Assembly (NCBI GenBank): GCA_017454855.1
Contig: JAFTCE010000028.1
Span: 23,575-87,574, forward strand
Source: Desulfovibrio sp.
GTDB taxonomy: Bacteria; Desulfobacterota; Desulfovibrionia; Desulfovibrionales; Desulfovibrionaceae
DNA length: 64,000 nucleotides
Reading direction: 5' to 3'
The notes under the pieces: generated by a model
The model's database searches: none
Seen by the model: only the letters and a program-made list of their open reading frames with translations
What the model was told of the DNA's origin: nothing
Program-made: the position numbers and the translations under genes
In this document: positions 30,616 through 52,667 of the stretch, piece after piece
Layout: each line of letters starts with the position of its first letter
Position numbering within the stretch: position 1 is the stretch's first letter

Positions 30616-31964
30616 GGCTTCTTTCCCCCAAGGGCATGGGTGACAAACATATGCGCAAGACGCCGGTTATTTTGCGCGGGGTCAAACATCTCTAGCGCCA
30701 GTGCCTGACCATTGCGCGCCAAACGGTTCGCCAGATCAGCGTCCTCAGCCAGACGCCAAATGGCATCTGCCAAAGCTGCGGCATCGCCGGGAGGCACGGC
30801 CAATCCCGTTTCGTTGTGACGCACCACTTCAGGCAAGGCATTGACCGTGGTGCTGACTACAGGCAGTCCATAGGCCAAGGCTTCTATAACCGTGTTAGGA
30901 ATGCCATCGCGCCGACCGGAAGAATGCACCACGCAGGGGGCGGCAAAGATGTCGTGTTCCTTGAGCAAGCGTGGCAACTCATTGTGTGTGACAAGCCCTG
31001 GCAGGTATACGCGATCTTCTAAGTGTAAATTCTTACGAAGCTTCCGAATTTTTGCATCCATGCACCCCAGCCCCATGACGGCCCCCCCGCCTCCTGCAAG
31101 GGTAAGACGGAAATCCAGGCCCCTATCACGAAGAAGACCGCAGGCGTACATCAGAATATCAAAACCCTTAGTTACGTCAAAGCGTCCCAAGGCGAGGATA
31201 CGTACCGGACGGCCCAAGGCCCGGGACTGCCCCGCCTTGGCCGGCATGATCTTTTCCTGAGCGTCTTTTTGCAATAGATTCCGAGGCAGCGGGAGCGTCA
31301 GACTGTTATAGACAAGTTCCACCTTGCCCCTGGCCTGCCCCCTGTCAAATGTTTCGATGCGCTTTTTGTCAGCCGCATTGTTGGCGCGAATTACGCTGGC
31401 CGCCGCCAGTTTGTTTCCAAGGTCAGGATCAGCCGGTTCCAGATTGTCACCACGTGCAGCCGTGGCAAAAGGGATACCCGAAATCTGCGAGGCCACCCAG
31501 GCAGCCGTAGCCGTGCCGCGCGGCCAGGGGGCATAGATCATGTCTATGCCACCCTCCTTGAACAGTCGCCCCAGGCACAGCCCAACGCCAAAAGCCCAGA
31601 GGTTCTCGCCCAGCATTTCCCAACTGCGCCAGCGCTGCCACAACACGCGCCTCGTCAGGCGCAGTATGGCTACGGGATGCAGCAGCAGACAACGGCAACA
31701 TTCCCCAAAGACAGCAAAGAAGGAACGTAGGCCAAACGTATGCGTTTCACTGGCTGCGGCACGCATTTCCGTGGAGCAGTGACGTAGATTGAAGCCGTAC
31801 AAGCTGAAGACGGAAAGGGGGAGGAGCTTTTTGAGTCCTTCCACTTCCCGAAAAATAAACGGTTGCGTAAACAGTGGATACCACAACAGCACGCAGGCAA
31901 CATGTGGCAGTCCGGCAGGAAAAATAGCGTGTTTTTCGCCCCTGCTGGACATATCTTCCTTCAT
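30603..31964 (-). CDS. Glycosyltransferase family 4 (WcaL-like)
   Basis: GRFDVTKG and DGIPNTVIEA GT-B motifs. The ATG lies at the 3' end of repeat copy A. Confidence 0.88.
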   Translation of the reverse strand: MKEDMSSRGEKHAIFPAGLPHVACVLLWYPLFTQPFIFREVEGLKKLLPLSVFSLYGFNLRHCSTEMRAAASETHTFGLRSFFAVFGECCRCLLLHPVAILRLTRRVLWQRWRSWEMLGENLWAFGVGLCLGRLFKEGGIDMIYAPWPRGTATAAWVASQISGIPFATAARGDNLEPADPDLGNKLAAASVIRANNAADKKRIETFDRGQARGKVELVYNSLTLPLPRNLLQKDAQEKIMPAKAGQSRALGRPVRILALGRFDVTKGFDILMYACGLLRDRGLDFRLTLAGGGGAVMGLGCMDAKIRKLRKNLHLEDRVYLPGLVTHNELPRLLKEHDIFAAPCVVHSSGRRDGIPNTVIEALAYGLPVVSTTVNALPEVVRHNETGLAVPPGDAAALADAIWRLAEDADLANRLARNGQALALEMFDPAQNNRRLAHMFVTHALGGKKPCAA

Positions 31965-32216
31965 CAGAAATTCCTTAGTGGTTAGAAACCTCCCCATTCA
32001 GTGATTTCGCCAAGAAGCAAAACCACGTTGGCTGCACCCGCAGTCAACAAGCATTGCCCGCCTTGGCAATGCTTCGGGGAAAAAGGCTCTTGACGGACGG
32101 CGAAGCCAAGGGCATCCTTTGTGTAACGCCTCCCTTCCGTGAGAGGTACTCCGTACGGCTCCTCTCCGCACAGTGACGGAGTCAGTTGACGGATGGAGCC
32201 GCCTGTGGAGGGAAAC
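31962..32216 (-). repeat. Dispersed modular hairpin-rich element, copy A
   Basis: Shares AACCACTAAGGAATTTCTGATGAA (24 nt) and GAAGCATTGCCAAGGC with 48918-49199. Shares GGCTTCGCCGTCCGTCAAGA (20 nt) and ACTGACTCCGTCA with 52433-52667. Confidence 0.9.
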
Positions 32217-33210
32217 CACTCCAGTCTCCCTCTCCGCAGGGCGCAGGGGCACTCGGCCCCAGCTCCTCCGCAAGCTCGCCCAAAGTCAAACAGCGAACCG
32301 TAAAATTCGCAAACAGCCAGCGGATCCAATCCAAGGCTTTTGCCAGCAGACGATCTACGGCTCGGACATCGGGGATATGGGGCGTCGCTCCCGGCGCCAT
32401 TTCCGAAGAATGCCAGGTAAGCGACAACACCTGCCCACCACGCTCCACATACAACCTCGCAACCAATTTCATGAGCCACAGTGGATGGTAGACGGGCAGC
32501 AAGGCCAAAACTCCCCACTGCCGCAGGCTGCTCTTGAGACGTGCGGCAACGACATCCGGTAGCCGCTGCAACAGCGCAGGCAAACCCCGCAGCAATGGCG
32601 TCACGCTCAGCGGCAACTCAAAAATCTTTCCCTTGTCCGTAGTAATCCAATACGGCCCACCGGGCGCATCAAAATGATCCGGCCCGGCGAGCGCCGAAGC
32701 GTAGCAGTGTAGCGGACGTACCGAAGCGTCTGCCAGTATGCCCTCCTGAACCAGCAAGGGCCACAATGCTTGATGCGCGTCCCATCGGCCCATGCGAAAG
32801 GACGTCAATGGCGTGTCCAGCAGGTTCCGCCCTCTTTCCAAAAGCGTATGCAGCTTGGCTGCCATCAGGGGGACGGGTACGGCAAATGCCGACACTGACG
32901 CCGCACAGTTCGAAAGCGACGCATCCGAACCATCCAGGGTCAACGGTGGCGTGTTCCAGTGGTGCAAATGCGCACCCAATTCCACGCTGTGCTGCTGGCA
33001 CAGATGAGCAAGATGCTTGCGGGAACGGACATCCTCCATGACGCTGTAAGCGCAGAAGAGCGTAGGCCGCACCCCCAGACGGCAAAAATCCTCTAGCCGA
33101 TAGAGTGCGGCGGTATTGGCAGTCGTATGGCCGCGTCGTGCGTATATTCCCCTAAACAAGCCCTCTTCTTCAACATCCAAACTGAGTACAAGGTATACTG
33201 GCCTGTTCAT
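32182..33210 (-). CDS. Polysaccharide deacetylase family protein (WalW-like)
   Basis: SLDVEEEG, ELGAHLHHWNTPP, SFRMGRW and LTWHS motifs of the NodB-like fold. Confidence 0.75.
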   Translation of the reverse strand: MNRPVYLVLSLDVEEEGLFRGIYARRGHTTANTAALYRLEDFCRLGVRPTLFCAYSVMEDVRSRKHLAHLCQQHSVELGAHLHHWNTPPLTLDGSDASLSNCAASVSAFAVPVPLMAAKLHTLLERGRNLLDTPLTSFRMGRWDAHQALWPLLVQEGILADASVRPLHCYASALAGPDHFDAPGGPYWITTDKGKIFELPLSVTPLLRGLPALLQRLPDVVAARLKSSLRQWGVLALLPVYHPLWLMKLVARLYVERGGQVLSLTWHSSEMAPGATPHIPDVRAVDRLLAKALDWIRWLFANFTVRCLTLGELAEELGPSAPAPCGEGDWSGFPPQAAPSVN

Positions 33211-33237
33211 GCCCGTTCTTCTGCTTCTGCTGCGGGA

Positions 33238-34497
33238 TCAATGCCGTTTGGGGCAATGCATCTGCCAATAGCGATCGCATTCTTCCGTGTACAGGCGCAT
33301 CAGATCGCCAATATTGCGCTTGGTATCAAACAATTCCAGCACCAGACTGCGGCCCGCCAGGGCCATGCGCACGGACAGCGAGCGATCTGCAAGCATACGC
33401 CGTATGGCATCAGCCAGGGCGCGGGGGTCGCGCTGAGGCACAAGCAAACCCGTCTCTTCATTTCTGACAACTTCACCAATGCCGCAGACGTCAGTGGCTA
33501 TGACCGGCATGGCATGTGCAAGAGCCTCCATGATCACATTGGGTATGCCGTCCCTGTCTCCATTGGCATGGACAACGCTGGGCATGATGAGCAAATCATG
33601 GTGCAGCATCAAATCGCATATCTGATCGTGGGGGATGAAGCCGGGCATGCTGACCGTCTGCTGCAATCCCAGACGATTGCGCATCTGCACAAGTTTATGC
33701 CGCCATTTGCCATCTCCCACAAGGGTAAGGCAGACAGGGACGTTTTCACGCCGCAGACGCGCCATGGCCGTCAAAAGGTCAGGAAAACCTTTGGTACGCA
33801 CGAAACGGCCCACTGCCAGCAAATGGTAGGGCGGTCTCATGGCTATGTCACACTGCCCCTTGGGGCTGAAGGTGAGGGCATTGTAAATGGCATGCACCTT
33901 GTGCTCCTGTCCACGAGGACAAAAACGGCGCAGCCAATCCACATTGGCCTGATTGTTGGTGCGTATGAACAAAGCGTCGGCTGATTTTTCATGGAGCAGA
34001 CCGTCCTCGGGATAGATATCCCCGGCCCGACCGGTGAACGCAAAGGGTATGCTCGTCAAACGTGACGCTACCCAAGCGGCAGTGGCCGGACCGTTGGCCC
34101 AAGGCGCGTGAATGAGCCGGACTCCATGCTCAAGACACATCTCGGCCAACCGGAAGCCTGCTATGAAGCACCACAAATTTTCACCGAGAGACTCTAGATT
34201 GCGCATGCGACGGAAAAATCCTCGACGCAGCAGACGCCAAACCATGCGTGGATCGCGTCGCAACCAACGAAGGAAAGCGCTAAACACACTACCCACGGCT
34301 CTCACGCCCATGCGGTGTACCTGCTCTGGAAAAGAACGCATTTCCCTGCTGCAGCCCACCAGTTTCTTGCCATACATGGTAAAGATGCGCACGGGCAGGC
34401 CGCAGGCCATGAGCTGCATCACTTCGCGAAAGATAAAGGTCTCAGAGGACAGGGGAAACCAGAGCAGGACATAGGCAACCACGGGCAGGTTTGCCAT
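33238..34497 (-). CDS. Glycosyltransferase family 4, paralog of 30603-31964
   Basis: GRFVRTKG, DGIPNVIMEA. N-terminus LPVVAYVLLWFPL...FIFREV matches the neighbouring GT. Start uncertain. Confidence 0.88.
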   Translation of the reverse strand: MANLPVVAYVLLWFPLSSETFIFREVMQLMACGLPVRIFTMYGKKLVGCSREMRSFPEQVHRMGVRAVGSVFSAFLRWLRRDPRMVWRLLRRGFFRRMRNLESLGENLWCFIAGFRLAEMCLEHGVRLIHAPWANGPATAAWVASRLTSIPFAFTGRAGDIYPEDGLLHEKSADALFIRTNNQANVDWLRRFCPRGQEHKVHAIYNALTFSPKGQCDIAMRPPYHLLAVGRFVRTKGFPDLLTAMARLRRENVPVCLTLVGDGKWRHKLVQMRNRLGLQQTVSMPGFIPHDQICDLMLHHDLLIMPSVVHANGDRDGIPNVIMEALAHAMPVIATDVCGIGEVVRNEETGLLVPQRDPRALADAIRRMLADRSLSVRMALAGRSLVLELFDTKRNIGDLMRLYTEECDRYWQMHCPKRH

Positions 34498-34634
34498 GGA
34501 CGCGGAACCAAGTCCGGAAGACTCATCGTTACACGTCTTCACGCACGTCTCCACAGCAGGACATATGCGCATACATCACGGAGCAATGACATCTACCCGG
34601 CCTGCCCCGCAGTCCACGAGGTGAGCATACCGCA

Positions 34635-35948
34635 TCAGGCATGGTGATCGTCGGCGTGTTCACGCTTGTACGTCTCCACGAATTCCCAGGCCTTGGGCAA
34701 CTCCTCTCGTACAGCATCGAGAGCCCTGCGGACATGGGCTTCCGTATGCGAAGCGGAAAGGAAGAAGCGCAAACGGTCTGTCCCTGCCTTGACAGCGGGA
34801 AAAGTAATGGGCATGACGTAGACATTGCGCTTGATCAAGGCAAGGGCCAGACTGCCTGCCACTACGGGATCACCAACCATAATGGGCACGACGGCATAGC
34901 CTTGGGCATGGCCAGTGTCCAGCCCGATTTCCGTAGCGTAGCGCACAAAAAACTGGGAAATGGCTTGGAGCTTGTGGACGCGTTCCGGTTCGCGCAACAT
35001 GAGTTCCAATGCCTTGCGGCAGGCCACAGCCACGATGGGCGGCATTCCCACGCTGAAGACAAAGCCCGGTGACCCGTATTTCAAAAACTCCACCAAATCA
35101 TGCCGACCGGCAATAAAACCGCCGCAACCGCACATGGACTTGGAAAGTGTACTCATCCACATGTCCACATCGTAGGGATCAATCTGGAAATACTCGCGCA
35201 CTCCTCGTCCTGTTTCCCCCAACACCCCAAGAGAATGCGCTTCATCCACCAGCAACATGCAGTCGTACTGCTTTTTCAACGCAATGATACGGGGCAAATC
35301 GGGAATATTGCCGTCCATGCTGAACAGCCCTTCCGTCACAATAACGGCGTGTTTGTACTCCCCACGCCTGGCTTTGAGCAATGATTCCAAGGCTTCACAA
35401 TCATTATGGGCATAGGAAAATCGGGCGGCACCGGACAGACGTGCGCCTTGCACCAAAGAATTGTGGGCCAGGGCGTCATGAAAAATAGCATCGCGATGGC
35501 CACACAAAAAGCCCAATGTAGACACGTTGGTCGCATGCCCGCTCACATAGACAATGCAATCTTCGACCTCGTACAAATCGGCCAGGGCACGCTCCAGTTC
35601 CCGATGGGGAGGCCGCTCGCCCCCAACAAGACGACTGGCGCCTGCGGATGTGCCATACAAGGCAGCCGCCTTGGCTACAGCCTCGGTAATTTCGGGATGG
35701 GCATTGATGTCCAAGTAGTCATAGGTTGAAAAATTAAGATATTCCTTGCCTCCAATGCATGTGGTAGCCTTGGCTGCACGTTCATGACAAAGGAAAAGGG
35801 GGTTGTCCAAACCCATTTGAGCGCCCATTTCCACCAACCGATCAAAGGCGAGCTTGGAACGCAGACGATTGAATCCGGAAGCTGCCCCTCCAGGAACCTG
35901 CTCCTGGGCAATGTCCTGCCCGGCTTCTTTGGGCGTAGTTTTCTTCAT
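34635..35948 (-). CDS. PLP-dependent alpha-oxoamine synthase (BioF/Spt/WcbT-like)
   Basis: NFSTYDYL, FSMDG, DEAHS, STLSKS (PLP lysine). Confidence 0.85.
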   Translation of the reverse strand: MKKTTPKEAGQDIAQEQVPGGAASGFNRLRSKLAFDRLVEMGAQMGLDNPLFLCHERAAKATTCIGGKEYLNFSTYDYLDINAHPEITEAVAKAAALYGTSAGASRLVGGERPPHRELERALADLYEVEDCIVYVSGHATNVSTLGFLCGHRDAIFHDALAHNSLVQGARLSGAARFSYAHNDCEALESLLKARRGEYKHAVIVTEGLFSMDGNIPDLPRIIALKKQYDCMLLVDEAHSLGVLGETGRGVREYFQIDPYDVDMWMSTLSKSMCGCGGFIAGRHDLVEFLKYGSPGFVFSVGMPPIVAVACRKALELMLREPERVHKLQAISQFFVRYATEIGLDTGHAQGYAVVPIMVGDPVVAGSLALALIKRNVYVMPITFPAVKAGTDRLRFFLSASHTEAHVRRALDAVREELPKAWEFVETYKREHADDHHA

Positions 35949-36105
35949 GCCTGATCCTCAACAAAATATGTGGTTCGTCCTGCCTGAAATAGCTGTCGAT
36001 TTCAGGAGAAGATACCGCCTTGCCCAAAACGCAAGGCAGATCAGGAACAGCAGACAAGCTGGCCCCGCAGAAAAACATCGGCATTTCTATAGAAAATTTC
36101 AAGAA

Positions 36106-36155
36106 ACGGCAAGGTCTGCAGACGACGTTTCAGCGTTTTCTGCAGACCTTGCCGT
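36106..36155. terminator. Perfect 17-bp inverted repeat downstream of the 86-aa gene
   Basis: ACGGCAAGGTCTGCAGA-16 nt-TCTGCAGACCTTGCCGT. Confidence 0.6.
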
Positions 36156-36190
36156 AAAGACGTGTTTCACCTGCCCTACGCAGGCGTGTT

Positions 36191-36451
36191 CTACAGGCTC
36201 AATAATTCGGCCACACGGCTTGCTGTGAGACCGCTATGCACGGAAAGAGCGGCCATGTTGTCCTGGGCAATCATACCCATGGTTGTCTCTAGCAGGGCCT
36301 CTGCCTCCGCGTCATCCATGTCCATCATGCGCAGAGACTGGATATTGACCATATCGTGTGCTGCTGCGCCGGGGGTAGCCATTGCCTCCCTGTCCGCGTC
36401 CACAAGAGGAAATGAAAACAATTCAGAGGGGGTGAAACCGGTAATCTTCAT
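36191..36451 (-). CDS. Small acidic hypothetical protein (86 aa)
   Basis: AAGGA RBS before the ATG and an upstream sigma54-like promoter. No family recognised. Confidence 0.65.
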   Translation of the reverse strand: MKITGFTPSELFSFPLVDADREAMATPGAAAHDMVNIQSLRMMDMDDAEAEALLETTMGMIAQDNMAALSVHSGLTASRVAELLSL

Positions 36452-36523
36452 GGCAGTATCCTTTTAGGCTGCGCCCGAAGGCTTGATGTCAAAAGTGCCG
36501 CTCCTTGACGGTCACTGAATATC

Positions 36524-36541
36524 TTGCAGGAATCATGCCAA
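36524..36541 (-). promoter_or_regulatory. sigma54 (-24/-12) promoter
   Basis: Minus strand TTGGCATGATTCCTGCAA matches TGGCACG-N4-TTGC spacing, about 75 nt upstream of ATG 36451. Confidence 0.65.
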
Positions 36542-36626
36542 AAAAATTCTGTCTCTGCCAGCCCCCTGCCAAGCCCTGTCATCCCTGGCTGCGCGCAGGC
36601 CCTGGCATAGGTATGTTGTCAACGAA

Positions 36627-36655
36627 TTGACTGCGGAATGTTTTTTCAACATACT
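36627..36655 (+). promoter_or_regulatory. sigma70-type promoter of the R-M cassette
   Basis: TTGACT-17 nt-CATACT. Confidence 0.55.
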
Positions 36656-36756
36656 ATCTTGCCACTTAAAAGGCGTGAACAGAGTTCAGAGCGTATCCAG
36701 GCTTGTGAAATCAGCCTATATCCGCTATCAACAGATAAAAAAAGGCGTTCCACGGT

Positions 36757-37542
36757 ATGAGCAAGGATACGATCGTATTTGATGTTTTTGAACAGTGCGT
36801 ACGGGCGGTTCAGAACGGTGAATTGATTGAATCCGTCTCGGTAAAAGATAAAGAATTTCATTTCCAAAACTGGTTTGAACATCGCCTCCAGAGGCTTTCA
36901 GTGCATTTTGAAGGTTCTGGACGCAATACCTATCCGGATTTCTGTCTCGTCGAATATGCCGAAGGCTACGAAGTCAAGGGACTGGCATGGCATGGAAGGG
37001 AGCGGGACTATGATTCGAACAGCCAAGTACCGACAGGATATCACAACGGTCGACAAATTTTCTATGTCTTCGGGCGTTATCCGGCGGACTTGTCTGAATA
37101 TGCCGACCAAGGTAACGGTCACAAACAGTATCCCGTTGTTGACCTTGTCATTTGCCACGGCGATTTCCTGAACGTCGACCACAACTATGTCCATAAAAAC
37201 AAAAGCCTGAAGGGTTTCGGCTCATATGGCGACATTATGATTCGCGACAGAAAAATGTACGTTGCACCGACGCCTTTTGCACTGACTGAAGGCATCACTG
37301 GTTTAATGACTCTGATTTTGCCCGAGGACTTCGGTACCGATGAACGCTATCAAAAAGTCGGCAAACTCGTCCGTTTGGAAGCAGAAACGTTGGTCGTCGG
37401 CTACAAATTTGACTTCAATATAAACGAAATACGCGCAGAGCGCATTCCCAATCCTACGGCAGGAATGCAGCACCGATTCGTCGCCTACCGACTCAAAGAT
37501 CAATCACCCAAGATGGTCTCAATGTTTGTCCGACCGGCATAA
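36757..37542 (+). CDS. Putative PD-(D/E)xK restriction endonuclease
   Basis: YPDF...GYEVK motif, directly upstream of a DNA amino-methyltransferase in a lower-GC segment. Confidence 0.6.
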   Translation: MSKDTIVFDVFEQCVRAVQNGELIESVSVKDKEFHFQNWFEHRLQRLSVHFEGSGRNTYPDFCLVEYAEGYEVKGLAWHGRERDYDSNSQVPTGYHNGRQIFYVFGRYPADLSEYADQGNGHKQYPVVDLVICHGDFLNVDHNYVHKNKSLKGFGSYGDIMIRDRKMYVAPTPFALTEGITGLMTLILPEDFGTDERYQKVGKLVRLEAETLVVGYKFDFNINEIRAERIPNPTAGMQHRFVAYRLKDQSPKMVSMFVRPA

Positions 37543-37553
37543 GGAAACAAAAA

Positions 37554-39665
37554 ATGAGTATGGTTTTTGACGAATCACGTTTTACTCCGACGACGGCACT
37601 CGAATGTGATTTCCCTATGGCTGAAATTAGCCAGATTGCCGAACAGGAAAGCTGGCGCAAGGAAATAAATCGTCCTATCTATCATATACACAAATGGTGG
37701 GCAACACGACTGGGGTCTGTATTCCGCAGCATCACGCTCGGAGCCTTGTGCAATCCCCAAACGGACATTCGAACTGAATTCTACAAAACGCACGATTTTG
37801 CAGACAAAGTCGTCCTTGACCCCTTCATGGGCAGCGGAACCACGCTCGGAGAGGCCGTCAAGCTCGGTGCTAAGGCTATAGGCTGCGACATCAACCCAAT
37901 AAGCACCTTCATTGTCCGGCAGGCATTCACGCCAGTCTCTGAAATGGCTCTTCGCGCTGCCTTCTCACAGCTAGAATATGTCATAGCGCCCAAAATCCGA
38001 TACTATTATCAAACTCACGACCCCAAAACTAAAAAACTCATCCCGGTGTTGTATTATTTCTGGGTTAAGACTGTCACAACACCGAAAAATGAAATACTGC
38101 CTCTGTTGTCCCGTTATGTCTTCGCCCAAGACGCATACCCGAAAAAGAAACCGCAGGCACATATTATCTGCCCCAGTTGCTGGAATATACTAGAAGGCCG
38201 CTATGACACAACTGATATGCTCTGTCAGCACTGTGGGTATCGTTTCAATCCGCAAAAAGGTCCTGCCTCCGGCCAGTATGTTACAACGACAGACGGACAA
38301 CGCTACCGAATCAGAGATCTTCTGCCAAAAGACGGAACTCCACCCAAGCACCGGATGTATGCTATGATGGTTTTATGCCCCAACGGCGAAAAAAACTATC
38401 TGCCGATAGGTGCCGAAGACCTAGCCCTCTACGAAGAAGCTCGAAGGACTCTTGCAAACGAAAATCTGCCATTGCCGGAGATTCCTGTCCGTCCAGGCCA
38501 CAATACTGACCAAGCCCTGAAATACAATTACACTCACTGGCGCGACTTCTTCAATGACCGCCAACTCCTGTGTCTAGGTCTTCTATTGAATGAAATTTTG
38601 AACATCAAAGACCAAAATATTCAAGAGCAGATGCTGTGCCTGTTCTCCAGCACCCTGGAGTTCAATAATTTGTTCTGTTCATTCAAAGGAGAAGGAACCG
38701 GTGCCGTTCGCCACATGTTCTCCAATCATATTCTGAAGCCGGAGCGCACCCCACTGGAAAACTCGGTGTGGGGGACGGACAAAAGTAGCGGTACCTTCAG
38801 CACGCTCTTCGAAACCCGCTTGCTGCCGGCAAAACGCTACCTTGATAGGCCGTTTGAAATCGGATTTAACCGTGACTTATTCGGCAACCGCAGTAAGGCG
38901 TGCAAAACAATAGCAAGCCGTCCAATTAGGGTTCGCAACGTTACAACGTGGCCTGAACTTACGACAACGAAGCACGGTATGCTCATCCTCAACGGCGACA
39001 GTTCCAGATTGCCGCTGCCTGCCGACTCGGTAGATGCTGTTATCACAGACCCGCCGTATTTCGATTTTGTTCATTATTCCGAATTAAGCGACTTTTTCTT
39101 TGCTTGGCTTTCCCCAGCACTACGCAGCCGTTATCAATGGATGGCACGTGAGAACTCGTCCGCTAAAGGTGAAGTTCAAAACACGGATTCTCGAGCGTTC
39201 GCCCGTCAGCTTTCTGCTGTTTTTACTGAAGCTTGCCGGGTTCTCAAAGATGAGGGCATACTAGCATTCAGTTTTCATCATTCACGAGCAGAAGGATGGG
39301 CAGCCATTTATGAGGCGATTAACACAGCCGGACTTGCAGTTGTCGCAGCCCATCCCGTCCATGCAGAATTACGCGTCGCAAGTCCAAAATCAACAGCAAA
39401 AGACCCAATCAGCCTCGACGCAATCCTTGTTTGCCGTAAGAAAGCGTGTACTCTACAGCACACCTCAATTCACGATATTCGTAAGACAGTCGATACTTTT
39501 ACGTCAAAACTGCAGAGCGCAGGCATGCATATTTCCGCAGCAGACCGTTTCGTTATTGGAGCGGCACAGGCTATGATTGCCAAAGCTGCTGATAATCTAA
39601 GTTTTGAGGACATGACGTTGTACCTTAAAAAAATTCATGACGCACTGACAAGTCATAAGAACTAG
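37554..39665 (+). CDS. DNA amino-methyltransferase with Zn ribbon (DUF1156/COG1743-like)
   Basis: HIHKWWATR, motif I DPFMGSGTT, CPSC...CQHC, motif IV TDPPY (motif I before IV, alpha order). Confidence 0.85.
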   Translation: MSMVFDESRFTPTTALECDFPMAEISQIAEQESWRKEINRPIYHIHKWWATRLGSVFRSITLGALCNPQTDIRTEFYKTHDFADKVVLDPFMGSGTTLGEAVKLGAKAIGCDINPISTFIVRQAFTPVSEMALRAAFSQLEYVIAPKIRYYYQTHDPKTKKLIPVLYYFWVKTVTTPKNEILPLLSRYVFAQDAYPKKKPQAHIICPSCWNILEGRYDTTDMLCQHCGYRFNPQKGPASGQYVTTTDGQRYRIRDLLPKDGTPPKHRMYAMMVLCPNGEKNYLPIGAEDLALYEEARRTLANENLPLPEIPVRPGHNTDQALKYNYTHWRDFFNDRQLLCLGLLLNEILNIKDQNIQEQMLCLFSSTLEFNNLFCSFKGEGTGAVRHMFSNHILKPERTPLENSVWGTDKSSGTFSTLFETRLLPAKRYLDRPFEIGFNRDLFGNRSKACKTIASRPIRVRNVTTWPELTTTKHGMLILNGDSSRLPLPADSVDAVITDPPYFDFVHYSELSDFFFAWLSPALRSRYQWMARENSSAKGEVQNTDSRAFARQLSAVFTEACRVLKDEGILAFSFHHSRAEGWAAIYEAINTAGLAVVAAHPVHAELRVASPKSTAKDPISLDAILVCRKKACTLQHTSIHDIRKTVDTFTSKLQSAGMHISAADRFVIGAAQAMIAKAADNLSFEDMTLYLKKIHDALTSHKN

Positions 39666-45380: not shown

Positions 45381-45406
45381 GCCCCTGCACCGAAAAGGAG
45401 TACGAC

Positions 45407-45544: not shown

Positions 45545-45546
45545 CA

Positions 45547-45643: not shown

Positions 45644-46300
45644 TTACATTTGCTTCGTAGCTCGCATACGGCGCAGCCAAGCATACCACTGCTGTAAACC
45701 GTCTCCATTACGGCAGGATACTTCAAAAATTTCCAGGCTTTTGTTCAGCTTGGTGGCAAAATTGCACGCCCGCCCCAAATCAAAATCCACATAGGGCAGC
45801 AAATCCATTTTATTCAGAACAAGAACCTTAGCAAGATTGAACAGCAAAGGGTATTTTTCCGGCTTATCGTCCCCTTCAGTGACACTGAGCAAGGCGACCT
45901 TGGCGTCCTCACCACAATCAAACTCCACAGGACACACCAGGTTTCCGACATTTTCAATAAACAAAATATCGACATGGTCGAGATCCAGACTTTCAAGTGC
46001 GCTCAAAACCAAGTTGCTGTCTAGATGGCAGCCTCCTTCGGTATTAATCTGCACGGCCTGCGCGCCGGTAGCAGCTACGCGACGAGCGTCGTTATCCGTT
46101 TGCAAATCGCCTTCGATCACGGCCATGCGAAATTCTCCAGACAAATCTTTCAATGTCCGCTCAAGCAAAGCAGTTTTCCCCGCTCCAGGAGAACTGATGA
46201 TATTGAGCGTCAAAATATCTTTGGCGGTCAAGGTATCACGTACATGAGCGGCCATTTTCTCATTCGCTTCAAGCACGTTGCGTACTACGGGTATTTTCAT
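45644..46300 (-). CDS. hypB: Hydrogenase nickel incorporation GTPase HypB
   Basis: SSPGAGKT, EGD, GGCH, ENVGNLVCP, NKMD. Start MKIPVVRNV after GGAG. Confidence 0.95.
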   Translation of the reverse strand: MKIPVVRNVLEANEKMAAHVRDTLTAKDILTLNIISSPGAGKTALLERTLKDLSGEFRMAVIEGDLQTDNDARRVAATGAQAVQINTEGGCHLDSNLVLSALESLDLDHVDILFIENVGNLVCPVEFDCGEDAKVALLSVTEGDDKPEKYPLLFNLAKVLVLNKMDLLPYVDFDLGRACNFATKLNKSLEIFEVSCRNGDGLQQWYAWLRRMRATKQM

Positions 46301-46385
46301 GGCATTCTCCTTGTTGTCGGACAGCAAACGCTTTTTGCTGCATACACATGATGGACTGTGACGTATGGTTTGCGCAAAATGGCAT

Positions 46386-46739
46386 CTATCGAGCCTCAAG
46401 GCGGTTGAGCAATAATTCCCGACCTTGTTCAACGACATGTCCCAATTGTTCTCCGCAGGCTGGGCAAGGCATCCAGAGCGCATCTTGTCCCTCCCCGCCA
46501 AAAATATTGCCGCAGGAGGAACAGCGCAAACGTAGAGGCAATTTGATGATATGCAGCTTTGCTTCTGCATACGCAGTATCGCGCACAAGAATATCAAAGC
46601 AAACTTTGAGGGATTCTGGTTCCACCCCGCAGATGGCCCCAAGCGTTACCCATATTTTTTCCAAACGGGTACACCCACTTCGAGTCATCTCATCCTCTGC
46701 CATCTGCAAGAGACTTTGAGCTATGGACATTTCATGCAT
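46386..46739 (-). CDS. hypA: Hydrogenase maturation nickel chaperone HypA
   Basis: MHEMSIA, CSSC...CPAC. Confidence 0.95.
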   Translation of the reverse strand: MHEMSIAQSLLQMAEDEMTRSGCTRLEKIWVTLGAICGVEPESLKVCFDILVRDTAYAEAKLHIIKLPLRLRCSSCGNIFGGEGQDALWMPCPACGEQLGHVVEQGRELLLNRLEAR

Positions 46740-46803
46740 GTTTCAAGACTACTCACAAGAGCTTTGGCCGTAAAGCCATGATACCAGTCCCCTTTGACCT
46801 GCC

Positions 46804-47532
46804 CTAAGGCTGAGATACGGGCTTACGGCTGAGCTGAACGGGCTTGCCAAGCCTCAGACTTTCTGCGGCTTGCAGCACCTCTGCCGCTCTTGTGGCGTCA
46901 CCACGCAGCAGCACCAGTACCAAATACAGTTTGCCCGTACGCTGCATACGGGTGCGCAGTCCACGGCCTTCCAGGCGTTGACGCACGGCATCAACAGTGT
47001 CTTGATCCTTGAACGCCCCCATTTGAAAGACATAATCGTATACCTTAGCTGATGTGCCAGCAATTTGCTGCTGCAATGGATCGGTCGATGCCGGGGCTTG
47101 TCGCGTCGAGGGCTGTTCCACAGCGGTAATGGCGCTTGTCGCCTGGGCAGTTGGCTGCGATTTGGAAGGCTTGCTGGGAGGGGGGGATTGTTTTGCCTGA
47201 ACATCAGCCAAGGGTGATTCGTTGCGCAACACCCTGGAAAAACGCAAATCCTCCGCAGCAAGAACTTTCTGTTCCTGCGCCGACGCAGCCTTGACCTGTT
47301 GTGGCTCCGAGGCTTTTTCCAAGGTTTTTTCATCAACACGCTTTTGAACACTCTCCCCGATCGCTTCCTGATGCGTCTCAGGATGCGCGTGCCAATATAC
47401 ACGTCCCGTCATGACTCCTCCAAGATAGGCCAACACTATGGCCATCATGGACAGAAAGCACACTGACAGCAAGGAAGGGATGCGCAAGATCATGCATGGC
47501 TTTGCGTCATGTTTGCCTGGGGCGGATGACAT
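46804..47532 (-). CDS. SPOR-domain membrane-anchored protein (FtsN-like)
   Basis: N-terminal TM, low-complexity linker, FQMGAFKD SPOR start. AGGAG RBS. Confidence 0.8.
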   Translation of the reverse strand: MSSAPGKHDAKPCMILRIPSLLSVCFLSMMAIVLAYLGGVMTGRVYWHAHPETHQEAIGESVQKRVDEKTLEKASEPQQVKAASAQEQKVLAAEDLRFSRVLRNESPLADVQAKQSPPPSKPSKSQPTAQATSAITAVEQPSTRQAPASTDPLQQQIAGTSAKVYDYVFQMGAFKDQDTVDAVRQRLEGRGLRTRMQRTGKLYLVLVLLRGDATRAAEVLQAAESLRLGKPVQLSRKPVSQP

Positions 47533-47838
47533 GGCTGCTCCTGCACGGTAACAGTTTTGGTGCGTACCGAATCAAATCCGGCAGCACGATGACGACGTTC
47601 CTCATAAAGCATATCAGTGTTGCGGGCCGGGGTAAAGCATTGGGCTGCAGCGCGGTCTACCGAAATAGCTGGGAGAGACAGCCCAATGCAAATTTTTCCC
47701 CAAATTGCGGTTGCAATTTTGTTGGCAAGTCGCCTAAACTACTTCCAAGCGTTTTTTGCAGCGTCGAGCCACCGCTGCCCGCGTCATCTTTACTCGGGCC
47801 GTGGCTCGGTGATGTCAACATCAACTGGAGGTTTACGA

Positions 47839-48837
47839 ATGAAACGTTTTGTTGTTTTATTTGCCGTCCTTGGCCTGGTCTGTGGTATGGCGATGGGTTT
47901 CGCCCCCAGTTCCGATGCCGCGACCTTGATCAGAATTGCCGGCATGAAACCCGAAGGCGAGCCTGAAACCATTGGCATGCACAAATTTGGCGAGTATCTG
48001 GAACAGCTTTCCAATGGCAAGTATAAGGTACAGGTCATTCCCAACAGCCTGGCCGGCAAGGAAGACAAATACATTGCCGACACAAGGCGCGGTGCCCTGC
48101 AGATGTGCGCTACCGGCACACAGACCTCCGCCATCCATCCGGCTATGGCCATGCTGGAAACTCCCATGCTCTTTGAAAGTCTGGATCATGCCCAGCGCGC
48201 CATGAATGGCGGTAAAACCTTCCAGCTCATCAATGCGGGCTTTCCGGAAAAATCCGGTCTGCGTACCATGAATGCCTTCCCCTTGGGCTTCCGACACTTC
48301 TACACCCGCAAACCACTGAAGAGCGTGAGCGATCTCAAGGGCTTGAAGATGCGCGTCCCCAACATCACCCTGTACACGACCTTTGCCAAGGAATGCGGCA
48401 TCAGCGGTCAGGCCATGCCCTTTGCCGAAGTGATGACCTCCCTTGACCAGGGTGTTATCGATGGCGGCGATAGCCCCTTGGCTGATATCGTCAGCACCAA
48501 GATGTATGAAAAAGCGCCTGAAATCACACTTTCAGGGCACATTCTTGTTATCCATTGCCTGTATATCAACGAAAAATTTTATCAGTCTCTGCCTGCGGAG
48601 GACAAAAAATGGTTCGACGAGGCTGCTAAGCGCTCGGCTGACGATCTGTGGGATATGATGAAGGGCATTGACGAAAAGGCCAGAGAGACCATCCTTGCGC
48701 ACAATGGCCACATCACCACCCCGGACGAAGCCTTCCGCAACCACCTTAAGGAAGCTGCCAAGCGTACCTGGAAGCTCTTCTACGACACGGTACCCAATGC
48801 CAAGGAAATTCTCGAAAGTGCAAATGCCTATAAGTAA
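47839..48837 (+). CDS. dctP: TRAP transporter substrate-binding protein
   Basis: Signal peptide, LGFRHF, DLKGLKMRVP, MPFAEV. GGAGG RBS. Confidence 0.92.
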   Translation: MKRFVVLFAVLGLVCGMAMGFAPSSDAATLIRIAGMKPEGEPETIGMHKFGEYLEQLSNGKYKVQVIPNSLAGKEDKYIADTRRGALQMCATGTQTSAIHPAMAMLETPMLFESLDHAQRAMNGGKTFQLINAGFPEKSGLRTMNAFPLGFRHFYTRKPLKSVSDLKGLKMRVPNITLYTTFAKECGISGQAMPFAEVMTSLDQGVIDGGDSPLADIVSTKMYEKAPEITLSGHILVIHCLYINEKFYQSLPAEDKKWFDEAAKRSADDLWDMMKGIDEKARETILAHNGHITTPDEAFRNHLKEAAKRTWKLFYDTVPNAKEILESANAYK

Positions 48838-48847
48838 CTAGACATCT

Positions 48848-48878
48848 GCGGGCCGAAACACATCTTGTTTTGGCCCGC
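48848..48878 (+). terminator. Hairpin directly after dctP
   Basis: GCGGGCCGAAACA-catct-TGTTTTGGCCCGC; no U tract. Confidence 0.5.
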
Positions 48879-48917
48879 TGTCATACCTACTGCATTCAGA
48901 CACAACAATGCGCAGAG

Positions 48918-49199
48918 GTTATTGCCACAATCGGCGCCATCCGCCAACAGACACTCCGTTAGCGGCGCAGAGGAGTCGTGCGGCCCGCCATGAAGGCAAG
49001 GGTTACGAAAAGGATGCCTCGGCTTCGCCCTTTGTCAAGCGCATTTTCCCTCGAAGCATTGCCAAGGCTGGCAATGCTTGTTGGCTGCGTCAGCGGCCAA
49101 CTCGGTTTCGCATCCTGGCGAAAACGACGCCAACGTGGTTTCGCTTCCTGGCGAAATCAATGAAGGAGAAGGTTTCCAACCACTAAGGAATTTCTGATG
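48918..49199 (+). repeat. Dispersed modular hairpin-rich element, copy B
   Basis: Collinear with copies A and C. Contains a 33-nt-period tandem duplication (49096-49161). Ends on the dctQ ATG. Confidence 0.9.
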
Positions 49200-49742
49200 A
49201 ACGATACGGAAACACGGGTTCCCGCAGACGATTCCCATGCACAGCCAGAGGAATCAACACAGCGCAAGGAAGGACTCATTCAACTGCTCTTTGAAATTTT
49301 CTGTGCCTGTATCTTTCTGGGCATGATCGGATTGGTATTTTACAATGCCTTCCTGCGCTATGTTTTTGATTCCAGTTTTCCGCCCAGTGAGGAATGGGCG
49401 CGCTTTTTGTTTATTTACATCACTTTTTTCGGCGCCATTGAAGCCTTTATTCACAAAAAACACATAGCCGTGGATCTCCTGGTATCCAGCATCAAGGGCG
49501 TCTCCAAAAAAAGCGTCACCATTCTTGCCTCTCTGTGCAGTATTTTCGCCCTTGGACTCTTGCTCTACGGCGGTATCATCAATGTCCTACAGACCATGGA
49601 CACCTACTCCGTGGCCACAGGAGTCAACATGGCCTTTATTAATGGCACCCTGCCCATCATGGCTCTGGCGGCCATTGTGGTAGAAATCCGCTCGCTGCTG
49701 GCTCTCCTGAACAAGCCGGCATCTTCCTTCCAAAAGGGCTAG
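49197..49742 (+). CDS. dctQ: TRAP transporter small permease
   Basis: 4 TM, LRYVF...SEEWARFLFIYITFFGA, HIAVD. Confidence 0.9.
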   Translation: MNDTETRVPADDSHAQPEESTQRKEGLIQLLFEIFCACIFLGMIGLVFYNAFLRYVFDSSFPPSEEWARFLFIYITFFGAIEAFIHKKHIAVDLLVSSIKGVSKKSVTILASLCSIFALGLLLYGGIINVLQTMDTYSVATGVNMAFINGTLPIMALAAIVVEIRSLLALLNKPASSFQKG

Positions 49743-49751
49743 GAGCGCGTC

Positions 49752-51041
49752 ATGGAGCTGTTCATCTTTCTCGGCACACTCTTTTTCTTCATGTTTCTGG
49801 GCATCCCTCTGGCCCTTGTTCTGGTTCTCTGCGCCATTGTCCTCATGTGGCACGCAGACATGTGGGAAGCCATGCTCATCCCCGGGAGCATGCTGGACGG
49901 CGCCAACAACTACCCGCTCATGGCCATTCCCTTCTTTGTCTTTGCCGGGGAAATCATGGCCGCCGGAGGACTTTCCAAACGTGTGGTGCAACTGGCGCAA
50001 CTCATGATAGGCCGGGTTCGTGGCGGTTTGGGCTATGCGGCCATCATTTCCAGCATTATCTTTGCCGGTCTCATGGGCAGTTCCGTAGGCGAGGCGGCTG
50101 CCTTGGGCGGTCTGCTCCTGCCCATGATGCGCAAGGTTGGCTATCATCCAGGGCGCGCTGGCGCCGTTATCGCCTCGGGGGCCATTCTCGGCCCCATCAT
50201 CCCACCCAGCACCAACTTCATCCTGCTGGGCGCGACCGTCAGCGGACTTTCCATCACTAAACTCTTCATGATTGGACTCATGCCGGGCATCTTCATTGGC
50301 CTTGCGCTGTGCTTTGTATGGTTTTTCATCGTGCGGCTCGACGGGTACAACGAAACCATCTCCTTTACCCGGCAAGAATCCCTGCGCATTCTTGTTGACG
50401 CCACCCCGGCCTTTCTCATGCCGGTACTGCTGCTGGGAGGCATCCGTTTTGGCGTATTCACTCCCACGGAAGGCGGCGCTTTCGCGGCCATCTATGCCAT
50501 CGTGATCTGCACGCTCTACTACCGCGAACTCTCGTTTCGCGAGCTGCTACGCGTCAGCGCACGGGCCGCACGCACCACATCGGTCGTCATGCTCATCGTG
50601 GCCACTGCGTCCGCCGTGGGCTATTTCATCACCATCGCGCAAATCCCCGATCAGATGACGAAGCTCTTTTCCCCGCTCATCGACAGCCCGATCTTGCTCC
50701 CGCTGTGCATCAATGTTTTCCTCTTCCTCATCGGCATGGTCATGGATTTGACGCCCAACATCTTGATTTTCGCCCCTGTGTTCTACCCGCTTATAACGCA
50801 GGCCGGCATTGATCCCTATTATTTCGGCCTCCTGTTTATCCTGAACCTGGGCATTGGCGTCATCACGCCGCCTGTGGGAACCGTACTCTATGTGGTTTGC
50901 GGTGTGGGCAATGTGAAATTCAGCGAACTGACGGTCAAACTCGTGCCCTTCCTCCTTGTGGAAATGCTCATGCTCTTCTTGCTGCTCTTCTTCCCCAAGT
51001 TGTCCATTGTCCCCATGAACTGGCTCATGGGCGGCAGTTAG
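49752..51041 (+). CDS. dctM: TRAP transporter large permease
   Basis: LMAIPFFVFAGEIM, IIPPS, GVFTPTEGGA, GVITPPVG. Confidence 0.93.
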   Translation: MELFIFLGTLFFFMFLGIPLALVLVLCAIVLMWHADMWEAMLIPGSMLDGANNYPLMAIPFFVFAGEIMAAGGLSKRVVQLAQLMIGRVRGGLGYAAIISSIIFAGLMGSSVGEAAALGGLLLPMMRKVGYHPGRAGAVIASGAILGPIIPPSTNFILLGATVSGLSITKLFMIGLMPGIFIGLALCFVWFFIVRLDGYNETISFTRQESLRILVDATPAFLMPVLLLGGIRFGVFTPTEGGAFAAIYAIVICTLYYRELSFRELLRVSARAARTTSVVMLIVATASAVGYFITIAQIPDQMTKLFSPLIDSPILLPLCINVFLFLIGMVMDLTPNILIFAPVFYPLITQAGIDPYYFGLLFILNLGIGVITPPVGTVLYVVCGVGNVKFSELTVKLVPFLLVEMLMLFLLLFFPKLSIVPMNWLMGGS

Positions 51042-51061
51042 GCAAACCACGCAACGCCGTT

Positions 51062-51095
51062 AAAACCGCCCCCCACATTGCGGGGCGGTTTTTTT
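51062..51095 (+). terminator. Rho-independent terminator of the TRAP operon
   Basis: AAAACCGCCCC...GGGGCGGTTTTTTT. Confidence 0.85.
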
Positions 51096-51128
51096 ACGAA
51101 AAAACCCTATAGTCAAGGAACGTCAGCC

Positions 51129-52028
51129 ATGCTTCTCCGCTATCCCGTGGCCGCAGGACGCTTCTACCCCGACGCGCCCCAAACCCTGCTGGCCGAAGTA
51201 CGCCACTGGCTTGCGTACGAATTTTCATCTGATGCCGCTACTGCCCCTGGACATAACGCAACAACTGGCGGCATCATGCTGCCCCATGCGGGCTATGTCT
51301 ACTGTGGCGCCGTCATCGGAGCCACTCTGGCCAGCACTAGAGCGACCTGGGTCAGCCACGCCTCATCCCAGGCCAAATCACCATTGCCGCAACGACTTCT
51401 TCTGCTCTGCCCCAACCATACCGGGATGGGGCATCCACTGGGGATCTGGCCTGAGGGCGCATGGCGTACGCCTCTGGGAGACGTGCCTGTCGATGCAGAA
51501 CTGGCGCAAGCCCTGCTCGCGGGCAAGGCCGGTTTTGCCGCAGACACAGCCGCCCACATGCATGAGCATGCCATCGAAGTACTCCTACCATTTCTGCAAT
51601 GCCCATCAAGGCCGTTACGCGTGACCCCCGTCTGCATTGGCACTAGCACGGCCCCGGCCCTGCGTCGGGCAGGAGAATTTCTGGCCGAGGTTATCCAGCA
51701 GTGTGAAGCCGAAGGTGAACCAGTAGGCATCATTGTCAGTTCCGACATGAACCACTATGAGGATCAGGAAACAACGCTGCGCAAGGATAACCTTGCCCTT
51801 GCAGCCATATGTGCCTGCGACGCCCAAGGTCTGCTTGACGTTACACGGCGTGAACAGATCACCATGTGCGGCGCAGCCCCCATGGCGCTTGCGCTGTTCG
51901 CCATGCAAAGCCTAGGAAAACCGTGGGCGACACTCTGTGCGCACGACACTTCGGCATCGGCTTCTGGGGATCTGCGACATGTGGTCGGCTACGCCGGAGT
52001 GCGCTTCGGCTGGGAACCCATGTCGTAG
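51129..52028 (+). CDS. amrB: AmmeMemoRadiSam system protein B (MEMO1 family)
   Basis: VAAGRFYP, PHAGYVYCG, CPNHTG, EHAIEV, SSDMNHY, TMCG, VVGYAG. Confidence 0.9.
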   Translation: MLLRYPVAAGRFYPDAPQTLLAEVRHWLAYEFSSDAATAPGHNATTGGIMLPHAGYVYCGAVIGATLASTRATWVSHASSQAKSPLPQRLLLLCPNHTGMGHPLGIWPEGAWRTPLGDVPVDAELAQALLAGKAGFAADTAAHMHEHAIEVLLPFLQCPSRPLRVTPVCIGTSTAPALRRAGEFLAEVIQQCEAEGEPVGIIVSSDMNHYEDQETTLRKDNLALAAICACDAQGLLDVTRREQITMCGAAPMALALFAMQSLGKPWATLCAHDTSASASGDLRHVVGYAGVRFGWEPMS

Positions 52029-52075
52029 TAAAGACACGCCCGTTTGCTATCAAAAAACATACCGAAGAGGATATC

Positions 52076-52390
52076 ATGAAAGTATGCATTGCCTACATGC
52101 ACGGCAAACCTGTCATGCTGGAATTGCGCGATGGCATCGCCTATATTGACGACATTCCCCAGCCCATCAAGCATCTTGAAGAAAAACAGCTACAGGAATT
52201 CAGCGTTGCCATCCAGGCCATTCCGTACAGTGTGGATCCAGGGTACGACGCCCTGGTCAATGCCAAGCGTGCGGCCTTCATTGCCGAATTGCTGGGCCTG
52301 GCCGTGGGGGATGACTGCATCAATCTGCTGACGCACATCCTAGATCATGTTCATTACAATGTGCTGGAATATCTGGGAGAAACAGAATGA
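52076..52390 (+). CDS. Hypothetical protein (104 aa)
   Basis: GAGGA RBS before the ATG; globular-looking composition; no family recognised. Confidence 0.7.
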   Translation: MKVCIAYMHGKPVMLELRDGIAYIDDIPQPIKHLEEKQLQEFSVAIQAIPYSVDPGYDALVNAKRAAFIAELLGLAVGDDCINLLTHILDHVHYNVLEYLGETE

Positions 52391-52432
52391 CAGCGCTGCC
52401 GTGCGGAACCTTGACCCCTCAATCCGTGCCAT

Positions 52433-52667
52433 GTTTCAATCCACAGTCGGCTCCACCCGCCGACTGACTCCGTCATCGGCGGATAGGAGCCGTGCGGATT
52501 GCCCCTCCCTGGTAGAGGAAGACTCTGCATAACAACCTGTAACTTCCTTCGTCGTAACAGGCCGATAAAAGGAAAGGGTTGAAAAGGATGCTTTCGGCTT
52601 CGCCGTCCGTCAAGAACATTTTTCCCCCTCAAGAGGGAGATTTCAAACCACTAAGGTATTTTTGATG
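52433..52667 (+). repeat. Dispersed modular hairpin-rich element, copy C
   Basis: Collinear with A and B. Lacks the internal AAGCATTGCC hairpin module but has an extra insert of about 55 nt. Ends AACCACTAAGGTATTTTTGATG. Confidence 0.88.

Follow-up and report, generated by a model that had tools for sequence, protein, structure and literature searches.

The window analysed here, a 64,000-nucleotide stretch of a Desulfovibrio sp. draft genome (2.95 Mb, 174 contigs, 55.7% G+C; GenBank assembly GCA_017454855.1, contig JAFTCE010000028.1, positions 23,575 to 87,574), carries three collinear copies of a dispersed, hairpin-rich repeat: copy A at 31962–32216(−), copy B at 48918–49199(+) and copy C at 52433–52667(+), measuring 255, 282 and 235 nt including a terminal ATG. 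They were first described in a sequence-only reading of the window, the coordinates and lengths of which are borne out, as is its module order: a nested hairpin (M1), an optional M2, M3, an optional M4 and M5, followed by the ATG. M3 reads AAGGATGC..GGCTTCGCC.TCCGTCAAG..TTTTTCCC, M4 in copies A and B contains the perfect stem AAGCATTGCC/GGCAATGCTT, and M5 reads GTTTC.AACCACTAAGG.ATTT.TG before the ATG. The three terminal ATGs open open reading frames (ORFs) of 453, 181 and 308 amino acids with the Pfam assignments Glycos_transf_1, DctQ and EamA, respectively, and the direct repeat reported at both ends, GTTTCAA(T/A)CCAC, is real. The repeat is probably a palindrome-associated transposable element (PATE), that is, a gene-less IS200/IS605 derivative moved as single-stranded DNA by a Y1 (HUH) TnpA acting in trans. 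In what follows, C-numbers denote contigs of this genome (G000) and other G-numbers the genomes of relatives with which it was compared.

Copy number, empty sites and target motif

Iterated nhmmer searches of the whole draft genome, with four modules from copy C as queries, uncovered the further copies that the sequence-only reading had proposed to look for: 70 matches to M1, 12 to M2, 53 to M3 and 33 to M5, amounting to 93 loci and standing far above chance (E-values down to ~1e-12 for M5, and to 1e-18 for M1 copies in other genomes). The most frequent arrangements are M1 by itself (23 loci), M1–M3 (18) and M1–M3–M5 (15). On inspection, many of the loci in the first two classes still finish in a degenerate M5, and internal-deletion derivatives retain both termini, with M1 fused directly to the M5 end for example; it is therefore the two termini that define the unit, which is 180–280 nt long, oriented and single. 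Copies can also be nested: at leuA, AT and a new M1 come after the M5 end (...TTATTG) of an older copy.

The optional domain M4 is not a module of the element, as had been supposed, but a separate nested mini-element of about 80 nt with three hairpins (GCATTGCC/GGCAATGC, a GGCTGCG...GC(A/C)GCC-type stem and TTTCGC/GCGAAA), because the same unit interrupts a tnpB gene on C95 (compared with its paralogs on C39 and C126) and recurs at several other places. Copies A and B carry it within the loop of their own CCCCC/GGGGG hairpin.

Proposed originally as one of two possibilities, a non-autonomous mobile unit is supported by empty orthologous sites in related species and by a patchy distribution at high copy number. 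Of the 24 species of the genus that were sampled, only 5 or 6 contain the element according to BLAST, and no copy was detected in 16 genomes belonging to other families of the order. Across 401 genomes of the family, the right-end motif CGACTGTGGATTGAAACAT, with up to 2 mismatches allowed, occurs in 35 genomes from 13 of 72 genera at up to 78 copies per genome, whereas the reversed pattern used as a control gave two matches only, one each in two genomes. Public metagenome-assembled genomes (MAGs) bearing copies are labelled Mailhella or Desulfovibrio, which suggests that the host is a gut-dwelling member of the Desulfovibrionaceae. Literature searches for the element sequences and for Desulfovibrio repeats found no publication.

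Empty orthologous sites, sought as the sequence-only reading had suggested, were recovered for nine loci and imply a duplication of 0–2 nt. The dctQ site reads CAGAGGTACACATGCACGAT in G020; the young C100 copy reads TGGAAACAACT-AT[GTTTC..TTTTTG]ATGAAATGT, against AGGAAAATGCT-ATGAAATGC in G020; the site at C133:12273 is empty in four species and that at C108:7643 in two, with a junction ambiguity of 0–1 nt. The other loci have AT on both sides, which fits either an element ending in ..CAT inserted before ATGAA or a 2-nt duplication. Native empty sites already have ATGAA, and in 6 of the 7 genes compared (dctQ, leuA, argH and three others) the terminal ATG is the native start codon; on C172, relatives have AAG where this genome has ATG, so the junction created a new start there. 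M5 itself is absent from the empty sites, which excludes it as a native consensus ribosome-binding site (RBS) or a pre-existing target. The earlier statement that the element ends on ATG thus stands as regards adjacency, and is best read as an element proper that ends in ...TTT(T/C)TG beside an ATG that is both native start and part of the target motif. Strain-level presence or absence could not be read from identical EamA proteins: the two metagenome contigs that encode one both carry the element, at the same spacing from the gene.

Flank logos were built from 38 copies in this genome and 17 in other MAGs (55 in total). The five bases that follow ...GGAATTTTTG are A (.87), T (.89), G (.82, with C or A in the remainder), A (.95) and A (.87), whereas on the M1 side AT alone is conserved (75% here, ~90% elsewhere) and nothing further out. 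On the opposite strand, TT(C/T/G)AT adjoins the M5 end in ~85% of the 55 copies (ATGAA, ATAAA or ATCAA on the gene strand), and the orientation of the element relative to this motif is always the same. All 16 complete copies in three genomes of two other genera read ATG^TTTCAATCC...AAGGAATTTTTG^ATGA(A/G) (^, junction). A target duplication of 2 bp (AT) or 3 bp (ATG) is not favoured as the main model, given the one-sided ATGAA motif and the two sites with 0–1 nt. Terminal inverted repeats are absent, the 5′ end GTTTCAATCCAC being unrelated to the reverse complement of the 3′ end, CAAAAATTCCTT; instead, there are subterminal hairpins, CCCCC-TTTA-GGGGG at a distance of 27 nt from one terminus and the nested hairpin of M1 at 15–17 nt from the other.

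Start codons and the ribosome-binding end

The suggestion that the unit targets or supplies translation starts finds support on both counts: reverse-complemented, the target motif is ATGAA, and the end of the element brings a Shine–Dalgarno (SD) sequence. In ATGAA, which TTCAT mirrors, a start codon is followed by the opening two bases of a Lys or Asn codon, so that gene starts would make up a good part of the landing sites that are tolerated. On the gene strand the left (M5) end reads AAGGA-ATTTTTG-ATG, an SD with a 7-nt spacer, and because the end carries this SD, an insertion that cuts a gene from its own RBS would replace that RBS at once. Such insertions would survive, and the RBS end would then be held by a filter of purifying selection while the remainder decayed. 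In the copies themselves AAGGA sits 7 nt upstream of the ATG and the native SD is stranded upstream, displaced by 180–280 nt (directly upstream of copy B, the native CAGAGGT is kept at 48903–48919); from this geometry we infer that the element's SD is in use at these genes.

According to our own crude gene calls and start sites (87.6% coding), every copy is intergenic. A gene in the same orientation begins at the terminal ATG of about 27 copies; about two dozen more point at the stop codon of a convergent gene, and a few have their M1 end against the CAT that is the start codon of a divergent gene. Of the 33 M5 matches, 22 have a terminal ATG that starts an ORF longer than 90 codons, with argH, leuA, leuB and hldE-like genes among them. 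The crude annotation places 299 occurrences of ATGAA at predicted starts, 979 in intergenic DNA and 4,774 within genes, so that ~23% of surviving insertions are expected at starts if intragenic ones are assumed to be purged. The tally of copies ending on ORF-opening ATGs, envisaged with the sequence-only reading, exceeds this: of the 38 copies that have an M5 end, 24 lie directly against an ORF of 90 codons or more (p ~2e-7), and so, on the same crude gene calls, do 9 of the 16 in which M1 is also intact (p ~0.005). In other genera, 8 of 16 complete copies lie at starts.

Part of this excess is survivorship. M1 has been lost in 15 of the 24 start-associated copies, whereas AAGGA is kept in 20 of them, the pattern expected if the end were retained as the gene's only RBS. 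Separately, in a species without BLAST-detectable copies (locus L083, G048:C6:91915-92485), argH is preceded by TTTTTACAACCATAAGGGATACATGATG, which resembles a decayed M5 end and suggests an ancient insertion that may have been kept only as an RBS.

Two further features of the copies were observed. The first three bases of the element, ATG, open a frame of 17–60 codons (MFQSTVG.IRRLTPSPADRSRADCPSLKEG...; for example, window 52431-52532(+)), which is found in 34 copies, has 43 codons in the youngest subfamily and is statistically unremarkable in length; that the native SD and this 5′ ATG would together translate a ~43-codon ORF through the hairpins is speculative. On the minus strand, M3 (for example, window 52584-52628) reads AAAAATGCT(C/A)TTGACGGACGGCGAAGCCGATGGCATCCTT, that is, TTGACG, 17 nt and CATCCT with an A-rich stretch upstream, a weak promoter-like site directed towards M1 and the flank. 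A consensus scan did not list this M3 site, and the guide-RNA-like transcript that it would make is likewise a matter of speculation.

The three window copies differ in age (Table 1). Copy A is old, with 72% identity to copy B and TG rather than the usual AT in the two nucleotides before M1; its glycosyltransferase gene begins with ATGAA, the target motif. Copy B lies within a TRAP transporter operon that is syntenic with relatives, and the dctQ ATG is the start codon of the element-free G020 ortholog. Copy C is the youngest, its M1 being 96% identical to the youngest subfamily, and its flank is the motif variant ATGCA. The gene upstream of copy A, for which a Pfam search gave no match, acquires from the element a short new C-terminal tail and its stop codon. 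An upstream ORF enters M1 by 35 nt and stops at the TGA of M1 at four loci (copy A, C87, C88 and C2), with a gain of ~11 residues (FPPQAAPSVN in copy A; window 32182-32216(−)); insertion into an ATGA stop/start overlap would produce such a run-in.

Table 1. Positions of the repeat copies, adjoining genes, nested M4 units and CRISPR loci (window coordinates unless a contig is given)
Feature	Position	Strand	Details
Copy A	31965..32216	−	M1 32151-32216; H2 hairpin 32129-32147; M3 32076-32119
Copy A, continued		−	nested foreign mini-element M4 31996-32075; SD-carrying M5 end 31965-31995
GT4 glycosyltransferase ATG	31962..31964	−	gene 30606-31964, stop 30603-30605; Glycos_transf_1 5e-29
Gene upstream of copy A	32182..33210	−	last 35 nt, including the TGA stop, inside M1
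dctP, upstream of copy B	47617..48837	+	DctP 1e-58
Copy B, between dctP and dctQ	48918..49196	+	M1 48925-48983 (5′ end degenerate); M3 49010-49051
Copy B, continued		+	M4 nested, one subunit duplicated, 49052-49164; M5 49165-49196
dctQ	49197..49742	+	ATG 49197-49199; DctQ 4e-26
Copy C	52431..52664	+	AT and M1 52431-52497; M2 52512-52568; M3 52584-52628; H3 hairpin and M5 52629-52664
EamA-family transporter gene	52665..53591	+	ATG abuts copy C; EamA 2.6e-24
M4 in copy A	31996-32075	−	
M4 in copy B	49052-49164	+	
M4 elsewhere in G000	C95:60-145, C44:1293-1372, C52:6243-6284, C69:17677-17741, C140:6921-7020		
CRISPR repeats	C106:1-180, C145:1-170, C86:1-420, C2:11080-11361, C12:3890-4298		
cas5d	C106:4944-5582		

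Probable affinity with IS200/IS605 elements

The repeat is assigned to the IS200/IS605-type PATEs because it lacks inverted repeats, has subterminal hairpins, adjoins a one-sided motif and matches the left end of a resident insertion sequence (IS), here called IS-A. Experiments on IS605-family elements of Geobacillus stearothermophilus identified TTCAT and TTTAT as their target motifs, and gene-less PATE derivatives of the ISGst family, mobilised in trans, have been described in the same work (Meers et al. 2023, PMC10055086). Like those PATEs, which leave no target duplication, the present repeat lacks inverted repeats, shows a duplication of 0–2 nt at most, carries subterminal hairpins, is inserted 3′ of a 4–5-nt motif (TTCAT/TTTAT), occurs in tens of copies that would need tnpA in trans, and has nested and deleted derivatives (PMC10055086). 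It differs from them in several respects: its left end bears an outward-facing SD, roughly half of its intact copies lie exactly on start codons, the large nested hairpin at its right end does not resemble the left one, no matching autonomous IS was found in our searches, and it is modular, with an optional M2 and foreign M4 inserts. PATEs occur in haloarchaea as well.

The window is free of transposase genes, as had been stated, yet the genome has a tnpA fragment on C73 and at least 7 tnpB matches. IS-A, an IS605-type element of ~1.9 kb with divergent tnpA and tnpB, is represented on C73 and C53 and occurs also in G045, G065, G013 and G218 (intact in G045, G218 and G065). The left-end core of the repeat, AAACCTCCCCCTTTAGGGGGA, is identical to that of IS-A, AAACCTCTCCCTTCAGGGGGA, at 20 of 22 bases: both share AAACCT, followed by a C-rich arm, a TTYA loop and a G-rich arm, next to a TTNAT-type flank. 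In full, the left end of IS-A is (N)TTAT^CCAACGCGCCGTAAAACCT-[CTCCC TTCA GGGGGAG] and that of the repeat TTCAT^CAAAAATTCCTTTGTGGTTTGAAACCT-[CCCCC TTTA GGGGG]; the two elements have a common layout, the right ends of both finish in AT, and an IS200-type element in G287 has the same AAACCT-plus-hairpin signature. By contrast, IS-A is protein-coding, its right end, CCCCCGCC-TTYA-GGCGGGGG-AGGATGTCAAT, has no M1, and its flank motif is (N)TTAT rather than, for the most part, TTCAT. Its left end also has no such SD, so that the SD is a feature of the repeat. A match to a known IS end is what the sequence-only reading had itself named as refuting an undescribed element; the left-end homology therefore weakens that description. 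Its comparison with BOX, REPIN and MITE elements holds only loosely: terminal inverted repeats with a fixed-length target duplication, as in classical miniature inverted-repeat transposable elements (MITEs), are lacking, and there are no REP doublets. REP and REPIN sequences are palindromes of 20–40 nt, often in inverted pairs and associated with a RAYT gene, whereas each unit here is 180–280 nt, oriented and single, and the genome has no Y1 match other than the tnpA fragment of IS-A. The anatomy, including a duplication of 0–2 nt, fits IS200/IS605.

On the strand opposite the downstream gene, a full copy reads TT(C/T/G)AT^CAAAAATTCCTTTGTGGTTTGAAACCT-(CCCCC TTTA GGGGG) ... M3 ... in its left part and, after M3, (CCCCTTCC TTCA GGGAGGGG) ... 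(M1 nested hairpin)-CTGTGGATTGAAACAT^ in its right part. Insertion would take place immediately 3′ of TTCAT, and the predicted single-strand circle junction would be ...GATTGAAACAT^CAAAAATTCC... (GAAACAT^CAAAAATTCC). Mobilisation would be the work of a TnpA.

In this assembly IS-A is split over contig ends, with the 3′ end of tnpA and the left end on C73:1-240 and the rest on C53:1-1090. On C53, the tnpB gene is frameshifted in its C-terminal zinc-ribbon region and the right end, ...GGGGGAGGATGTCAA, adjoins a partial copy of the repeat (M2–M1). Reverse-complemented M2–M1 was considered as the right end of the C53 tnpB element and rejected: the intact copies of G045 and G065 finish with GGATGTCAAT, and what adjoins on C53 is a neighbouring copy of the repeat.

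Several observations weigh against the assignment. An autonomous element with an M1 right end was not found in this genome or at ~40 tnpA/tnpB loci in relatives, and a search near tnpA or tnpB in 8 genomes found no autonomous parent. Of tnpA the assembly has a single fragment of 36 codons, located at a contig edge, and the C53 copy of the IS-A tnpB carries the frameshift described above. The M1 hairpin is unlike the left-end hairpin, which itself lies 27 nt from the end compared with 14–15 nt in IS-A; in IS608 the two end hairpins are alike. The reverse-context junctions at C133:12273 and C108:7643 fall short of the expected motif by 1–2 nt, and the start enrichment among intact copies depends on crude gene calls.

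Some of these points would suit a different mover, such that the repeat is mobile and non-autonomous but served by an IS110- or IS607-type recombinase, another enzyme or recombination-based copying, its likeness to IS605 being superficial. No parent with both ends was found, the hairpins of the two ends are dissimilar, the IS110 and IS607 families likewise lack inverted repeats and duplications, one IS110-family transposase is encoded on C127, and AT, which occurs on either side, could serve both junctions as a common core dinucleotide for recombination. We nevertheless regard this as rather unlikely, since the targets share TTNAT only and not the longer specific site expected of IS110-type recombination, and since motif, one-sided position, hairpin geometry and the left-end match all point to IS200/IS605. 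The C127 transposase was rejected as the mover, as no element modules flank it; nor did a self-BLAST of the genome reveal a multi-copy DDE insertion sequence as a parent. The single C127 gene adjoins a paralog of the thyX region that is 88% identical to window 53568-54228 (C127:1421-1858, C127:2587-3247).

Among other small repeats, Correia (Neisseria), ERIC, BOX and RUP elements are similarly dispersed, structured, intergenic and co-transcribed, can bring expression signals and, in the case of BOX, are modular; unlike the present repeat, they have terminal inverted repeats or depend on DDE transposases with duplication of TA or another target. We know of no Correia, ERIC, BOX or RUP element that ends on start codons through a motif mirroring ATGAA. 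A closer parallel for element ends persisting beside genes is provided by Borrelia, where IS605-family ends remain next to lipoprotein genes after the transposon has dissipated (Delihas 2009, PMC2775950), although those stem-loops lie at gene 3′ ends, with no RBS and no start-codon targeting (PMC2775950).

Hairpins, RNA and the host CRISPR repeat

The second possibility raised at the outset was a portable cis-regulatory RNA leader: a structured 5′ untranslated region, with or without a leader peptide, selected gene by gene for translation or operon stoichiometry, with stems under selection at the RNA level. Between co-directional genes (dctP–dctQ, leuA, argH) the element is transcribed as part of the mRNA; it carries an SD that appears to work, its upstream ATG opens the short ORF described above, and its RBS end is retained preferentially. 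The hairpins, however, do not covary. For 39 distinct M1 sequences evaluated under the nested-hairpin model, with column shuffles as the control, 81.2% of cells were paired compared with 81.1% in the shuffles, so there is no excess of compensatory changes, nor was there an excess of double changes; an alternative, CRISPR-like M1 hairpin had the same null outcome. In Rfam 15, searched as had been proposed, the window has no match at the gathering score; at E ≤ 1 there are two chance-level matches (one to RsmW, E 0.85, over the M4 unit nested in copy B), both outside the modules that belong to the element itself. Some half of the complete copies precede no gene, and many point at the 3′ end of a convergent gene; the genes that are served have unrelated functions, and sister-species orthologs are element-free with ordinary SDs. 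Individual copies decay as dead transposon copies do. Neither the leader nor RNA-level selection on the stems is thus supported, and we consider a regulatory leader most improbable; the stems trace back to the master copy, read as single-stranded DNA.

M1 also resembles a CRISPR repeat of its host. Its minus-strand terminal 32 nt are GTCGGC-GGATGGA-GCCGAC-TG-TGGATTGAAAC, compared with GTCGCGCCCCACGCGGGCGCGTGGATTGAAAC for the type I-C repeat; the M1 consensus matches the array repeat at 19 of 32 positions in an ungapped comparison and at 12 of 12 in the GTGGATTGAAAC handle. M1 might accordingly mimic the repeat as a Cas5d substrate, act as an RNA decoy or anti-CRISPR, or derive from CRISPR. The identity with the I-C 3′ handle falls at the very end of the element, a 6-bp stem stands at the right distance, the GTCG start is shared, the genome has cas5d and an I-C array, and the handle motif is the best-conserved part of M1 across genera. 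Yet the two do not co-occur as they would if the element depended on type I-C CRISPR: of 24 species in the genus, 6 have cas5d, 5 have the element and 2 have both, and G004 has 10 copies without cas5d. The conserved end runs on to ...GAAACAT, outside the CRISPR repeat; the IS-A right end GGATGTCAAT indicates that GGAT..AA.AT tails are normal for local IS605-type ends; and the left end holds a second, non-CRISPR-like copy, GTGGTTTGAAAC. A CRISPR-linked element is accordingly very unlikely, and the I-C likeness is best described as an unexplained resemblance for which a function has low probability. Stand-alone sequences resembling a host type I-C repeat on mobile elements recall the solitary CRISPR repeat units, or RNA anti-CRISPRs, reportedly described by Camara-Wilpert et al. 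in 2023; unlike these, the present repeat has tens of chromosomal copies, no association with cas5d across species, and a motif that is a transposon terminus. Four CRISPR repeat types lie at contig ends in this genome: I-C (GTTTCAATCCACGCGCCCGCGTGGGGCGCGAC), I-E-like (GGTTCATCCCCACGCGTGTGGGGAATGC) and two others.

A bolder proposal, which we think unlikely, is that of a start-codon-specialised transposon: its target would mirror ATGAA, its left end would have evolved into a full replacement initiation region, its right end (ATG plus a frame through the hairpins) would couple the stranded native SD to the upstream ORF, and its minus strand, with the promoter-like M3 and the CRISPR-I-C-/guide-RNA-like M1, would make guide RNAs for a resident TnpB or Cascade. 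If this were true, ~1% of genes in several Desulfovibrionaceae would be translated from transposon-built start regions, and the same DNA would double as an RNA-guided homing or decoy device.

If the repeat is a gene-less IS200/IS605 derivative, several consequences follow. Dispersed hairpin-rich repeats should not be read as regulatory RNAs without a covariation test, and at sites of this kind gene callers will misplace starts or add short C-terminal tails to upstream genes. The repeat offers a natural test bed for how IS200/IS605 target motifs shape the sites at which elements accumulate, as well as a ready-made portable RBS for genetic tools in sulfate reducers. The occurrence of identical 30-nt sequences on the starts of unrelated genes would follow from a simple rule, a landing motif that mirrors the commonest start combined with an RBS of the element's own that allows survival, and transposons can be the source of a measurable fraction of translation-initiation regions (~24 genes here, with comparable numbers in other genera).

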